Source: Octopus vulgaris (lineage: Eukaryota). Taken from it: DNA of 64,000 bases. Below, piece after piece: positions 3,501 through 61,952 of this stretch. Numbering within the stretch: position 1 is the first letter of the stretch; every line of letters begins with the position of its first letter. The notes beneath the pieces were generated by a model. The model saw only the letters and a list, made by a program, of their open reading frames with translations. It ran no database searches and was not told the origin of the DNA. The stretch covers positions 40,858,001-40,922,000 of the forward strand of contig OX597822.1 of the NCBI GenBank assembly GCA_951406725.2. Reading direction: 5' to 3'. The translations under genes and the position numbers were made by a program.

Positions 3501-3786
3501 CACAAATCTATAAAAAAAAATGCACGTACCCAGTCACACGCAATCACACACTCACATACGCATACTCACACAGACAAGTACACGTACACACACGCGCGCG
3601 CTACCGCACACAGTCACGCATTCTTTGAAATGACTATGAAAATTATTTCTTCCTTTTGTTTGTGTTAAATACCAAGATGTGTATATACATGTATATATAT
3701 ACTTATGTATGTATGTATGTATGTATGTATGCATGTATGCATGTGTGTGTGGGTGGGTGGGTGTCTGTTTGAATGACTAGAGGGTT

Positions 3787-3837
3787 GCCATACGTTGATG
3801 ATAGGCAAACACCTTGAAACCTAGGTCCGTATGTGGC
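3787..3837 (+). ncRNA. Type I hammerhead ribozyme motif (U3 variant)
   Basis: catacg-TTGATGA-tagg caaaca cctt-GAAAC-CTAG-GTC-cgtatg; stem I catacg/cgtatg; palindromic ACCTAGGT stem III. Confidence 0.75.
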
Positions 3838-4210
3838 ATCCGCTTCTTCGGGGAATGATCTCCCTTTGCAGGCTAGAGGACGCCGTGATGGCGTCAGCCC
3901 TCCTGGTGACGTTGATGATCGCCTGGGGCTAAATGCATCAGTAACACCCCCACCGCCCTGCCCTGTCCCTAGCTACATTCAGATGGCTAACGTCCCTTAT
4001 GTTATATATATATTATATATATATTATATATATTATATATATATAACATAAGGGACGTTAGCCATCTGAATGTAGCTAGGGACAGGGCAGGGCGGTGGGG
4101 GTGTTACTGATGCATTTAGCCCCAGGCGATCATCAACGTCACCAGGAGGGCTGACGCCATCACGGCGTCCTCTAGCCTGCAAAGGGAGATCATTCCCCGA
4201 AGAAGCGGAT

Positions 4211-4261
4211 GCCACATACGGACCTAGGTTTCAAGGTGTTTGCCTATCATCAACGCATGGC
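4211..4261 (-). ncRNA. Type I hammerhead motif, inverted copy of 3787-3837
   Basis: Reverse complement of the 3787 motif with one stem I substitution. Confidence 0.7.
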
Positions 4262-4494
4262 AGGCACCGATCGCCTGGGGCTAAATGCATCAGTAACACC
4301 CCCACCGCCCTGCCCTGTCCCTAGCCACATTCAGATGGCTAACGTCCCTTATGTTATGGAGCAGTTACTGTCTATATCTCGTTTAGAGAATTATTATTGC
4401 TGTCGAACAGATTTTCTACATCAGTAAATGTATTTACTGTGAAAATCTTTATATATAGCCAGCACAGAGAGTCGTTCGTCGAGTAGCGGTGCCT

Positions 4495-4545
4495 GCCATA
4501 CGTTGATAATAGGCAAACACCTTGAAACCTAGGTCCGTATGTGGC
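4495..4545 (+). ncRNA. Type I hammerhead motif (U3-A8 variant)
   Basis: catacg-TTGATAA-tagg..cctt-GAAAC-CTAG-GTC-cgtatg. Confidence 0.7.
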
Positions 4546-57023: not shown

Positions 57024-58039
57024 ATATATATATATATATATATATATATATATATATATATATATATATATATATATATATATATATATACGGTATATAA
57101 GTCGAAATAGTACATATAGTAAACACGTAGTGTAAACATTCAAACATCATCACTATCTTTTCCAAATCCTGTTGCATTTCACATGGAATTTTTGGTCCTT
57201 CAAAGTCATGTTAGGGTATCAGTTGATCAACCTTTCTGGGCGGTAAATTTTGGTTAGAAAATTCGACTTGAACGCCGGAAATAGGCTCGATAGAACAAAC
57301 CAGTAAAAATCGCCAATTCTACAGTTTGAGAAGGGCGAGTGAAGATTTGACTCAACATAAATTTTAGTAATCATTGCTACTAAAGGTACAAAGTCTGAAA
57401 TGTTTAGGGACGAGGCTAGTCGATTACATTGACCCCTATACTTGACTGACACTTATTTTATTGACACTAAAAAGAGATTAAAGGCAAAGTCAACCTCAAG
57501 AGAGTTTGAACTCAGAACGTCAAGCAGGAAAGAATTGCCGCTAAAGCTTATGGTTCAATGTGCTGACGATACTACCAGCTCGCTAATTATACAGATAATG
57601 AATTATTGACGTTATCACGTATCGTCCATGGCCATCACTACCTCAAACCACAACCACAGCCTATAACGACCCGCCATAAAATCACGTGATGACGGCCAAA
57701 GCAGTTTGCATAATTTAATAATTGTCTTGATTTCCGTTCATCTTGTTCAATTACGTGAATTGTATTAACGTGATTATTGTTGTTGTTGTTGATGATGATG
57801 ATGCTTTTGTTATTTGTGGTTGTAGTTGCTTTTCTAGATGCTAATGTGTGTGCGCTCCCGCGTGTAGTGGCGCGCGCGCAGCTAAGTGTTCCCTGACTTC
57901 GATGAACCAAATCTAATTTCATCGGCGGACAATTTTGTTTGATGAAGGAAGAAAAATTTAAAACCTCAGTTCATGTGTGTGTGTGTGTATATGTGTGTGT
58001 GTGTGTGTGTGTGTGTGTGTGTGTGTGTGTGTGTGTATT

Positions 58040-58540
58040 CTTTCATTCTTTTATTTCTTTCAGTTATTTGCTTGCAGCCATGCTGGAGCACCGCCTTTAG
58101 TCGAACAAATCGACCCCAGGACTTATCCTTTGTAAGCCTAGTACTTATTCTATCGGTTCTCTTTTGCAGAACCACTACGTTACGAGGACGTAAACACACC
58201 CACATCGGTTGTCAAGCGATTGTAGGGGGACAAACGCAGACACACGAACATATGCTCGAAATGAGTTGATAGACAACCGACAACTGAAGGGTCTTTCTCG
58301 GTGTTTACTTGTTCTGTTTTCCATTTTTTCTCTCGTTTTTTACGTATTTCATGCTATTTATACCGTTGGTGACGTCCTGTACCCATATGTATGTATGTAT
58401 ATTATTTATTATTGTGTGTATGTGCGCGTGCATGTGTGTGTGCGGCTTCTTTCACAAGTTACCTGTCCAAGATGCCATGCAGTGGGACTGAACCCGGAAC
58501 AATGTGGGTGGTAAGCAAGCTACATACCACACAGCCATAT
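58040..58540 (-). mobile_element. SINE family A interrupted by another repeat
   Basis: Tail at 58040-58245, head at 58460-58540. Confidence 0.7.
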
Positions 58541-58710
58541 ATATGTATGTATATATGTACATATATATATATATGTACTTACATATATAATATATGTATA
58601 TACATTATATAACATTTATATATATATGTAAGTACATAGACACACATGTATACATGTAAGTGTCAATATATATTCTCTCTCTCTCTCTCTCTTCTCTCTT
58701 CTCTCTCTGT

Positions 58711-59890
58711 AAGGTGGTGCGCTGGCAGAATCGTTAGGGCACCGGACAAAATGCTTTGCGACATTTCCTCTGACTTCACGTTCTTAGTTCAAATTCTATC
58801 GAGGTCGACTATATTTTTCCTCCTTTCCGGGTCGATAAAATAAGGACCAGGGTTGACGTAGCTGACTTGCACCCTGCCCCGAAATTGCTGGCCTTGTGCC
58901 AAAATTTGAAACCAATATATACTCAGCGTAAATATGAGAATGCATCGGCGTTCATGAATTTCATTTCGTGTATTTTAGTACTAATGCTCATAAATATATT
59001 TACGCAAGGACGAGGACAAATGCTGAAGTAAACCAAGATTTGCTGTAATAGTAGAGCCTTTGGTATGTAGTTGTTGGCGGTGAGCTGGCAGAAACGTTAG
59101 CGCGCCGGGCGAAATGCTTAGCAGTATTTCATCTGCCGCTACGTTCTGAGTTCGAATTCCGCCGAGGTCGACTTTGCCTTTCATCCTTTCAGGGTCGATT
59201 AAATAAGTACCAGTTACGCACTGCGGTCGATATAATCGACTTAATCCCTTTGTCCGTCCTTGTTTGTCCTCTCTGTGTTTAGCCCCTTGTGGGTAGTAAA
59301 GAAATAGGTATGTAGTTGTTGGCCTTCATGTTTTGTCTTCAAATACCGCCGAGGTACAGCTTTACCTTCCATAAGTTCCTGATCGATAAATTAAAGTAGC
59401 CGGCAAGAACTGTGGTCGATGTAACATTTCTATAATGTAAGGAGGCGAGCTGGCAGAAACGTTAGCACGCCGAGCGAAATACTTATCGGTCTTTCGTTTA
59501 TCTTTACGTTCTGAGTTCAAATTCCACCGAAGTCGACTTTGCCTTTTATCCTTTCGAGGTCGATAAATTAAGTACCAGTTGCGTACTGGCGTCGATCTAA
59601 TTGGTTGGTCCACCCCTCTCCAAAACCTTCGGGCCTTGTGCCTAGAGTAGAAAAGAATATTATTAAAATGTAAGGCGACGAGCTGGCAGAAACATTAGCA
59701 ATCGGGGCGAAATACTTAGCGGTCTTTCGTCTGCCGCTACGTTCTGAGTTCAAATTCCACCGAGGTTGACTTTGCCTTTCATCATTTTGGGGTCGATAAA
59801 TTAAGTATCAGTCGCGTACTGGGGTCGATCTAATCAACTGCCCACTCCCCCAAAATATCGGGCCTTGTGCCTAGAGTAGAAAAGAATATA
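58711..59890 (+). mobile_element. Cluster of ~4 SINE family B copies
   Basis: Heads at ~58712, 59077, 59441 and 59673. Confidence 0.8.
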
Positions 59891-61644
59891 TTTCTACTCT
59901 GTATCTTCTATATGTAACAGAAATAATCACACACGCAGAAGTATGCATATAAGTTTCTGTGTATGTGTTAATGTGTATATGAGTGTGTGTATGTGTGCGT
60001 ACATACACACACACACATATATATGTATGTATGTATATATACATACACACACACTATATATCTGTGTATATATATATGTAAAGTTAATCCAAACATAAAA
60101 ACACTATGAGAAAACACAACAACGCGAGGACGTCGAACAAGTATAGTATTATTGGACCCTCAGGAAAGGAAAGAAAGAAGTAGGATTCAGCGGTTCGAGC
60201 GGAGCTCTTCGCCAGAAACATAGGAATGGAAGACGGAGGAAAAAGATCGCCAACGATACACACACGGTCATATATATATAAATATATATATATATATATA
60301 TATACGCATCTGAATATGTACATGTAAGCAAACACATACAAATATATACGTGTATGTATGTAAATATGTAAATATATATATGTATTACACACATACATTA
60401 CACACGTACACACACACCTACATACACATGCATACACACACACACACAAACATGCACGGACACACCCAGACATACATACATACACCTATATACACACGCC
60501 CACACACCTACATACACACACATATACACACGCCCACACACCTACATACACACACATACATACACACACATACACGGACACACCCATACGTACTTACATA
60601 CATACACCTATACACACACATGCATACACACACACACATGTACGCACATACACACACATATACGCACATACATATATACCCACACACATGCACACACACA
60701 CACATACGCACAAGCATGCATGCATGCACACGCGCACACCTACACGCATACACACACACACACGCACGTACACATACATACATACACACACGCATACATA
60801 CACCCATACACATACATGCATCCTACACACACATACATACACACTCACACATACATACACACACACACACTCACTCACACACCTGTATGTACGCGCACAC
60901 ACATGCACATACACACACTTCCCCACACCCACACGTACATACATACACACTCATACACACACACACACACACACGGACATACATCTATGCACACACATAT
61001 ATACACACATACTCACATACATTCATCGGACACACTGCCACCCAGACATACACACAGACACACTCACACATCCACACACATACATACTTACGCGCACACT
61101 CGCAGGCACGCGCACACACGCGCTTGCGCCGGGTCGCGCACGCATACGCGCCGCATGCACCTCGCTCTCGGACCCGACGAGACCTCCCGCCCGTTCCTGG
61201 GACCGTCGCTGTCGTTGGGTTTTCCCACGCCCGTCTCCGCGGGACCACTCTTCCATCTTCCCCTCAGCTGGAGTCCTTTTTCCTTACCCCCCCCCCCTTT
61301 TTCGTTACACACACGCGCACACATATACACACATTGCTTAAATATATACATTACTCTTACACACATTCAATCTACTCGCCATTAATACTACCACGACACT
61401 GGACACACACACACACTACCACTCAACACACGCTGGCACGCTACATACCCCTTCCCCTCCCTCCCTTCCTCCTTCCTTCTTTTTCTTACTACTGACCTTT
61501 ATCTGCTATGCTGACCACCGTCTCGCCCTACCTCACACGCCTACACACAGACGCACACACTTACACATACATATATTTTTTGTTTTTTTATCTCGCCTCA
61601 CACACACACATACACACACGCACACGCACACACTCACACATACA

Positions 61645-61952
61645 CACACATCTGTTGCGTTACCAACCTTGTCTCCACTCTTTTGCCTTTAAAAACCCAC
61701 TTTGCCCTTGTTATCGTAAACATCCGCCTTTCACCATGTGTAACTCGTAAACACCAGTCGTTTTTTTTCTCTATCCCTGTTGCCCGCTCTGGGATCTTTC
61801 TTTCCTCTCTCTTCCTTCTTTATGTTTCCGACGAAGAGCTCCGCTCGAAACGTCATACCTCCCTGCTTCCATTTCCTGAGCGCCTATTAATAATAATACT
61901 GTAATTGTTCCATTGCTGTTGTTTTTTTGTTTTTCCCGTTTGGATTAAAAAA
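61645..61952 (+). mobile_element. Copy of the 39415-39722 repeat with HHR-like motif at 61821-61858
   Basis: Near-identical sequence, followed by (TA)n. Confidence 0.7.

Follow-up and report, generated by a model that had tools for sequence, protein, structure and literature searches.

The stretch analysed here, called the window, comprises 64,000 nucleotides of Octopus vulgaris DNA (contig OX597822.1, positions 40,858,001-40,922,000, within a 2.80-Gb assembly of 227 contigs) and is AT- and microsatellite-rich in composition. It holds numerous small hammerhead ribozyme (HHR) motifs. Our reading, to which we assign a probability of roughly 80%, is that these are minimal type-I HHRs of the terminal repeats of Penelope-like elements (PLEs), left where Hydra-type and Neptune-type elements, and short non-coding units likely copied by them, inserted many times and mostly in 5'-truncated form. 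Some of the altered cores that are fixed within families would then probably belong to weak, dimer- and protein-assisted ribozymes which are still under selection. In three families, C, K and G, the HHR was found in both pseudo-long terminal repeats (pLTRs) of the element.

Hammerhead motifs in the window

The strict descriptor used in this work described the type-I layout with stem I of at least 3 bp and stem II of at least 3 bp and at most 110 nt in all. A mismatched or bulged first pair of stem II was tolerated, stem III had to be of even length and self-complementary, and position 17 could be any base except G (H17). A descriptor demanding a paired first base pair in stem II missed every listed site. 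With the core YUGANGA there were 11 motifs in the window, as compared to a mean of 0.07 (maximum 1) in 30 block-wise dinucleotide shuffles, and when all four cores that are the state of a whole family (YUGANGA, CCGANGA, CUGUNGA and UUGANAA) were allowed there were 14, as compared to 0.18 (maximum 1) in 50 shuffles. The sites passing the descriptor with either YUGANGA or UUGANAA amounted to 13. Stems III of odd length added at most 1-2 matches per core and were excluded from the density estimates. An Rfam scan of the window gave no hammerhead family in the best 150 of 363 matches; these 150 were microsatellites scoring against microRNA and small nucleolar RNA models.

A first-pass annotation of this DNA had listed 21 hammerhead sites, and all 21 positions proved to have the type-I layout or to be a recognisable decayed copy of it; its expectation of a motif frequency far above that of dinucleotide-shuffled sequence was borne out as well. 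The sites sorted into 12 families, A-K and M. Since B turned out to be a relative of C, and G of K, these represent about 10 lineages. Stem III was self-complementary in all 12 families, with a length of 4-9 nt and in some cases with G.U pairs or one central base. Some of the palindromes had to be corrected: at 5173, 6001 and 9686 it reads ACAUGUGU, G.U pairs included, while at 16896, 17203, 39589, 55645 and 61821 it is only ACGU. The stems differ between families yet pair, as claimed, and compensatory changes were seen between families and subfamilies. The association with (TA)n applies to most families, which adjoin such tracts, but not to family D, which has no (TA)n link.

Seven of the 21 listed sites failed the strict four-core descriptor. 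Two of them, 39589 and 61821, nevertheless match the state of a young subfamily, U4C plus U.U in stem I, found in 9 of 10 loci; 56914 has U4C with a weak stem I, and 27621, 27692, 56527 and 60186 carry private damage. Sites 4495 and 42064 had been given as canonical and actually have U3-A8, their family state, whereas 3787 and 4211, also given as canonical, are private G8 variants of a U3-A8 family.

Protein-coding elements carrying the motif

Families K and G are putative Neptune-type elements, as judged from protein motifs and microsatellite targeting; the same motifs also fit Nematis. In the window they left the following features.

55556..55760, minus strand: family K, 200-bp 5'-truncated pLTR end between (TA)n; HHR at 55645-55680, core CUGUAGA (A6U, the family state)
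50092..50127, plus strand: decayed HHR of the K lineage, absent from the earlier list
39371..39737, plus strand: family G, pLTR fragment; HHR at 39592-39626, core CCGACGA (U4C)
60085..60270, minus strand: family G, older dead copy with core CUGGCGA, GAAA changed to GAAC and G at position 17
60387..61950, plus strand: family G, 1.6-kb 5'-truncated copy of a 6.1-kb PLE; HHR at 61824-61858, core CCGACGA

The K element has an open reading frame (ORF) of 1080 amino acids with DKG, a CX4CxxC linker and a CCHH GIY-YIG endonuclease, and five such ORFs were 99.3-99.7% identical to each other. Of 25 loci, 18 had the K motif downstream of the endonuclease, and of the 6 loci with a long frame, 4 had it in both pLTRs. 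For family G, CCGACGA was present in both pLTRs of two 6.1-kb elements, both of them frameshifted, and the reverse transcriptase (RT) was about 69% identical to that of K. The CA-rich tract at 60387-61650 is not a local microsatellite; it is the 3' region of the 6.1-kb G element and is 93% identical over 1.7 kb to a copy at another locus (L305).

Family C is represented by a complete layout of pLTR, ORF and pLTR, and family B, related to the C pLTR, by a short end.

5787..10045, minus strand: family C, Hydra-type PLE; 3' end abuts (TA)n
5787..6359, minus strand: 3' pLTR of C; HHR at 6004-6076, core CUGAAGA, long stem II, stem III ACAUGUGU
9472..10045, minus strand: 5' pLTR of C; HHR at 9689-9762
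5131..5268, minus strand: family B, end piece lacking its 5' part, at (TA)n; HHR from core to cleavage site 5253-5177

The first-pass annotation had called the PLE beside the motifs autonomous-type. This is right for the element at 5787-10045, but in this copy the ORF (ATG at 9423, stop at 6718) is broken into three frames. Family C is young, with many intact ORFs: many copies elsewhere in the genome have open frames of 899 amino acids, intact copies of 895 amino acids occur too, and some copies stand in tandem with a spacing of about 3.6 kb. An intact ORF (locus L123) comprises RT and GIY-YIG with RW, DKT, CxxC..E and N..CxH, and CCHH is absent. RWK-like and DKT motifs, lack of CCHH, and CxxC and CxH around E and N are features of the Hydra clade (PMC8557442; statements on published work, here and below, refer to the parts of each source that were compared), and family C is Hydra-type as far as such motifs predict. 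The CxCX5C linker was absent, with 0-2 Cys in the linkers of 160-169 amino acids of 9 long ORFs, while CxCx3-6C was present in 53 of 61 homologues that have an endonuclease tail. In the Hydra-type PLE (L123, 148-2835; window 6718-7790, minus strand) about 160 Ser/Asn-rich low-complexity residues replace CxCX5C. That linker is thought to aid (TA)n targeting, and the C copy in the window still ends at (TA)n. Among relatives of B and C three stem II pairs were compensated.

Altered cores as family states

Core states were read from pattern matches in the whole genome and from a sample of 140 stretches of 10 kb, taken blind at round coordinates of contigs 1-25 and 27 (1.4 Mb; C26 and C28-30 not included). 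A 35-nt K pattern with CUGUNGA, in which a core base regarded as near-invariant is altered (A6U), had 12,412 exact matches in the genome, its reversed control had 0, and N7 took all four bases. When the core was left free, there were 15,215 matches, the first 100 listed comprising 90 with CUGUNGA, 96 with U6 and 2 with A6. The G pattern gave 7,292 matches; in the first 100 listed, 72 had CCGACGA, 83 had C4 and 15 had U4, and some of the latter likely arose by CpG decay. Decay of the CpG in the G core appears to restore the canonical CUGA in a number of inserted copies (7 C-to-T as compared to 5 G-to-A changes in the first 100 listed). In family A, 59 of 61 exact genome matches had U3-A8, the two exceptions being the window sites 3787 and 4211, and in family H, with 1,123 matches, 98 of the first 100 listed had UUGANAA. 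CCGANGA was found in three of the four sample copies of family E that keep the core; E and M are mostly CCGANGA, with few copies, and U4C seems to recur across unrelated HHR families. Several of the variant cores (A6U in K, U4C in G, U3-A8 in A and H) are family states and not decay, and most of the sites set apart earlier as variant-core are not odd copies.

Selection on K was assessed in 28 rows from the sample, reduced to 27 by exclusion of one partial row. U6 was present in 27 of 27; N7 was A in 15 copies, U in six, G in five and C in one, and H17 was A in 22, U in four and C in one, never G. Non-CpG variants shared by at least three copies occurred at 0 of 30 constrained positions versus 33 of 96 flank positions (Fisher p=3e-5), a contrast that is inflated because the flank columns hold poorly aligning poly-U runs, and in which the related K copies are not independent. 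When stem II, which had been used to pick the rows, was left out, the count was 0 of 18 constrained positions (p=0.0015). One stem I pair is C-G in K and G-C in G, and between family A and the HHR at L052 an exchange of U3-A8 for C3-G8 goes together with a stem I swap. The K stretch was also found in sequencing-run contigs of five organisms, one contig being identical across the motif; many contigs of other organisms agree with it over the motif but depart from it at the motif's edges, and no RNA run was among the matches listed.

A competing explanation, which we regard as a serious contender although not the favoured one, is that the cores with A6U (K) or U4C (G, E, M) are catalytically dead and that the fold is kept for protein binding or RNA handling, or by recent common descent. 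It agrees with published work on a PLE, in which HHR mutants did not hinder insertion in vitro (PMC11167929), and with Naiad and most Chlamys PLEs, which amplify without HHRs (PMC8557442). In a phage HHR, A6C strongly lowered Mg2+-dependent activity, with activity in Mn2+ (PMC3088659, PMC7151607), and 8 of 9 Xenopus retrozyme dimers failed to cleave (bioRxiv 10.64898/2026.07.22.740005). The young G subfamily in addition has the U.U in a stem I of only 4 bp, and inserts of these elements run through the cleavage site. What speaks for catalysis is that K subfamilies, with widely different flanks, vary in the core only at the catalysis-free N7 and H17 (the latter not to G), that stem I is compensated between G and K, and that U4C, weak in vitro, yet supports viroid infectivity (PMC3088659). 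We lean slightly towards a K ribozyme that may still cleave with U6, slowly or only with protein or Mn2+; if it does not cleave, the fold would be kept for another reason.

Non-coding tandem families and truncated ends

Four families, A, H, I and J, consist of units without coding capacity, with one type-I HHR per unit.

3786..4757, both strands: family A, non-coding 356-bp unit; one copy is direct, one is inverted and a partial tandem bears a 44-nt tail, the whole ending in (TA)n
3787..3837, plus strand: HHR A1, core UUGAUGA (private G8), U.U at the base of stem II, stem III ACCUAGGU
4211..4261, minus strand: HHR A2, in the inverted copy, core UUGAUGA
4495..4545, plus strand: HHR A3, core UUGAUAA (U3-A8, the family A state)
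41833..42335, both strands: family H, 362-bp unit without coding capacity, as a partial tandem together with an inverted piece
42064-42105, minus strand: HHR of H, core UUGACAA (U3-A8), stem III ACGCGU
48912..49694, plus strand: family I, non-coding 534-bp unit, partial tandem; core to cleavage site at 49354-49422, stem III ACAAUUGU
51396..52295, minus strand: family J, unit of about 560 bp without coding capacity, as a partial tandem together with an inverted piece; HHRs at 51592-51635 and 52151-52194, minus strand, stem III ACGUACGU

The tandem periods were 356, 362, 534 and about 560 bp, with no ATG frame above 58 amino acids (in family A the longest was 33). The units stand in partial or full tandems with inverted 5'-truncated copies; the window copies of A were 97-99% identical, and in arrays of H, which reach 5 units, identity was 96-98%. 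Family A has a choice of two 3' ends, separated by 44 nt. The sequences of A, H, I and J were compared with that of the Hydra element C, and nothing in common was found.

The remaining families are D and the truncated ends E, F and M.

16790..17302, both strands: family D insertion with an inverted 5'-truncated copy, HHR at 16900-16934 (minus), and a direct copy, HHR at 17207-17242 (plus)
17056-17125 (approximately), plus strand, in the direct copy of D: tRNA-like head, followed by (AAT)n and then the HHR
16790-16800 and 17292-17302: 11-12 nt direct repeat flanking the D insertion
27520..27764, both strands: family E, two ends in inverted orientation, flanked by (TA)n; HHRs at 27621-27658 (minus, G5U damage) and 27692-27730 (plus, stem III mismatch)
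34735..34935, minus strand: family F, truncated end at (TA)n; HHR at 34768-34846, canonical core, stem III ACAUAUGU
56453..57034, both strands: family M, inverted pair of ends; HHRs at 56527-56574 (minus, C3G damage) and 56913-56960 (plus, CCGAUGA), stem III ACAGCUGU

In the 1.4-Mb sample, 13 of the 21 family D matches had the head at a distance of at most 400 nt, and of 16 heads 13 stood near an HHR. Flanking direct repeats (range 8-15 nt) were at least 8 nt long in 13 of 17 loci and at least 10 nt in 7 of 17, counts made without a shuffle control. The A-box-like and B-box-like motifs of the head were picked by eye from the consensus. An Rfam scan of the D region returned neither an HHR nor a tRNA match, and three of five weak phage matches (E 0.7-2) lay on tRNA genes; ARAGORN at a relaxed threshold made mostly spurious calls and was not used as evidence. 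Head-to-head inversions were seen in the window copy and at L285-L294, and the partner element is perhaps Penelope/Poseidon-type. Stem III of E, ACUC-N-GAGU, is as in Hydra HHRs (PMC8557442).

The first-pass annotation had taken all of these families for independent non-coding self-cleaving RNA parasites, that is retrozymes, perhaps circular, mobilised by a Hydra-type PLE. The description suits A, H, I and J, which are non-coding tandem units of retrozyme size and whose long stem III palindromes resemble Hydra HHRs (PMC8557442, File S2), and an active Hydra family does exist in the genome. As a statement on all families it is refuted by C, G and K, which account for 6 of the 21 sites and are pLTRs of coding elements, and B, E, F and M look like 5'-truncated ends. 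Mobilisation by a Hydra-type PLE does not hold as a general account either: the two most abundant families are putatively Neptune-type, A, H, I and J show no link to the Hydra element, and D lacks (TA)n and has target-site duplications. We consider the parasite explanation improbable.

Density in the genome

The 1.4-Mb sample contained 39 canonical, 12 U4C, 17 A6U and 19 U3-A8 motifs, 87 altogether, while five shuffles of it gave 2-5, 0-2, 1-2 and 0-5, respectively. Other single-change cores were at shuffle level (A6C 2, A6G 1, G5A 1, U4A 1, U4G 0), and A9 (6) and G8A (7) were slightly above it. The density corresponds to one motif per 16 kb, or about 57 per Mb above background, and to roughly 160,000 HHRs in the whole genome. 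The rate of one motif per about 3 kb proposed before is reached in this window if decayed copies are counted, but not in the sample. With 14 motifs the window lies about 3.5 times above the mean of 4.0 per 64 kb, and a count of 14 was not attained in any of 20,000 resamplings of independent stretches. Further HHR families were noticed beyond the window (L052:3879 and L247:2490, both on the plus strand, L249:8191/8390, and L294), with more CCGANGA cores and one inverted pair. Chance matching in AT- and microsatellite-rich sequence is refuted by the 14 motifs against 0.18 under the strict descriptor and scarcely needs weighing: a loose descriptor, with one core mismatch and any stem III, does yield about 9 matches in shuffles, but a reversed-core control yields 1, the position in the pLTRs is fixed, and exact genomic copies number in thousands while reversed patterns have 0.

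Published counts are 126,247 hammerheads in axolotl and more than 6,000, in 16 families, in one coral (PMC7229834), the axolotl genome being 28.2 Gb (bioRxiv 10.64898/2026.07.22.740005); for Xenopus tropicalis the figure is about 9,000 and for coelacanth 4,000 (PMC4209133). The comparison suggests, rather than shows, that the octopus genome has the highest hammerhead density on record, since descriptors differ between studies. In the sample, 48 of 87 motifs have a core other than CUGANGA; searches fixed on CUGANGA therefore miss over half of the motifs here, and published animal counts may be low.

Proposed origin of the motifs

In a PLE studied in vitro, the protein cuts AT-rich DNA, and reverse transcription begins at two internal RNA sites, yielding a tail (PMC11167929). 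Following this, the RT-endonuclease of the octopus elements would nick AT-rich DNA and start copying the RNA from one or two fixed internal sites. Counted from the cleavage site, the 3' ends lie about 100 nt (K, G) to about 220 nt (A, C) further downstream, and two start sites would fit the 44-nt tail of A. Most copies would stop soon after the HHR, so that each insertion leaves one motif and HHR density tracks the density of PLE insertions. The 5' ends were checked for accumulation at the cleavage site and showed none (1 of 37 K-model and 0 of 30 G-model matches), as expected from the PLE studied in vitro, in which uncleaved RNA was the main template and the HHR cleaved only with the PLE protein (PMC11167929). 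The truncated insertions would thus be copied from uncut or re-joined RNA, with one HHR each, and since inserts run through the site, cleavage would not be needed at the copied site. The palindromic stem III may pair two HHRs of a tandem transcript (after PMC4209133), and cleavage, slow and helped by the PLE protein, would free unit-length RNA.

Several points weigh against this reading. Cleavage of these HHRs is a prediction from the letters of the DNA. In RNAcofold calculations A and H had the active dimer as their minimum-energy form, while K, G, D and J did not, and U6 may be inactive, given how strongly A6C cuts Mg2+-dependent activity. Searches for the mobilisers of A, H, I and J, for that of D, and for parent elements of B, E, F and M found none. 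The putative PLE clades of C, G and K were assigned by motifs rather than by a tree, covariation was counted over 6-10 sequences with few events, and the K alignment has the poly-U runs and related copies mentioned above.

Relation to known systems

The motifs resemble the minimal HHRs of PLEs (Cervera and De la Pena 2014, PMC4209133) in being type I, with a short stem I, an unpaired base before stem II and a palindromic 15.2-16.2 region, and in occurring as many unrelated families per genome, mostly as solo truncated copies, with close inverted pairs and with U3-A8. They differ in the A6U and U4C family states, which are absent from the parts of that alignment and supplement compared, and in a density far above the 4,000-9,000 per genome given there, though our descriptor is looser. 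Families A, H, I and J fit non-LTR retrozymes, which are non-coding tandem units of 170-970 bp with a type-I HHR (Cervera and De la Pena 2020, PMC7229834; bioRxiv 10.64898/2026.07.22.740005), except that the octopus units have PLE-type inversions, tails and (TA)n targets, and their HHRs are minimal and not of the loop-loop kind. Retrozymes have been proposed as non-autonomous PLE derivatives (Li, Clavereau and Pollet 2026, bioRxiv 10.64898/2026.07.22.740005); the parts of that preprint compared mention neither molluscs nor octopus.

Among coding elements, C is like the Hydra-clade PLEs, including Hydra-1_oBim, in RW, DKT, the lack of CCHH, the pLTR HHR and the (TA)n target (Craig et al. 2021, PMC8557442), and an octopus Hydra element with an HHR has already been published there; C is longer, with a period of about 3.6 kb and 895 amino acids instead of about 700, and has the CxCX5C linker replaced. 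K and G share DKG, the CX4CxxC linker, the CCHH GIY-YIG, microsatellite targets and an HHR in both pLTRs with Neptune-clade PLEs (PMC8557442), but differ in the HHR core, CUGUNGA in K or CCGACGA in G. Natural HHRs altered at core position 6 or 4 are known from phage Bcep176 (A6C) and from a viroid (U4C) (Perreault 2011, PMC3088659; Naghdi 2020, PMC7151607). Each of those, however, is a single rare RNA, whereas the octopus has U6 and C4 as fixed states in tens of thousands of mobile-element copies, and base 6 is U. Family D is reminiscent of the SINE-like (short interspersed element-like) hammerhead repeats Sm-alpha and Sj-alpha of schistosomes, in which a promoter is followed by an HHR in a short repeat (review PMC6765202); it differs in its minimal HHR, trinucleotide spacer, PLE-type head-to-head inversions and flanking direct repeats of 8-15 nt.

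These motifs are not described in the main text of the octopus repeat annotation (PMC13282606), nor in that of the giant squid genome paper, which gives 235 Rfam hammerhead hits (PMC6962438), and no A6U, A6C or U4C string occurs in the part of PMC11014351 compared. Already known are minimal HHRs with palindromic stem III in PLE pLTRs, their many families, solo and inverted copies, and U3-A8. New are the family-fixed U6 core in a young intact lineage, the C4 core in its sister lineage, the high density, and the tRNA-headed family. A natural A6U was not found in the literature searched, outside of which were most subscription papers and also Lünse 2017, reportedly a survey of small PLE hammerhead variants, which may list A6U.

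Other elements in the window

A Tc1/mariner-like DDE_3 transposase fragment lies at 11144-11518 (plus strand) within approximately 10046-11780, and 10042-10174 resembles 11638-11783 in inverted orientation, which points to terminal inverted repeats adjoining the 5' end of the C element. Two adjoining RT fragments of long interspersed elements were present on the plus strand, at 36986-37660, which we take to be RTE-like, and at 37694-39151, presumably CR1-like, the second being a 485-aa open frame (RVT_1, E 1e-29). A fragment at 46575-46973 (minus strand) resembles the C-terminal zinc-binding region of a non-LTR element with restriction-like endonuclease (weak zf-RVT match). SINE-like repeats in tandem partial copies, with periods of about 185-235 bp, occupy 12430-12983 and 58708-59891 and have no HHR under the strict descriptor.

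Significance

The hammerhead of PLEs is kept in most clades, yet it cuts poorly and is dispensable for insertion in vitro. A tentative and rather doubtful possibility is that the top Penelope family of this octopus would run on a U6 hammerhead catalytically selected across several subfamilies, conditional on its own RT-endonuclease or on Mn2+, in a genome with perhaps the highest HHR density (about 160,000, one per 16 kb) and with a tRNA-headed, Penelope-mobilised hammerhead SINE. Abundant sister lineages of putative Neptune type, which carry U6 in K, C4 in G or else a canonical core, and one of which has intact ORFs 99.5% identical, make up a natural experiment, and the comparison of U6, C4 and canonical cores could tell whether catalysis or only the fold is selected.

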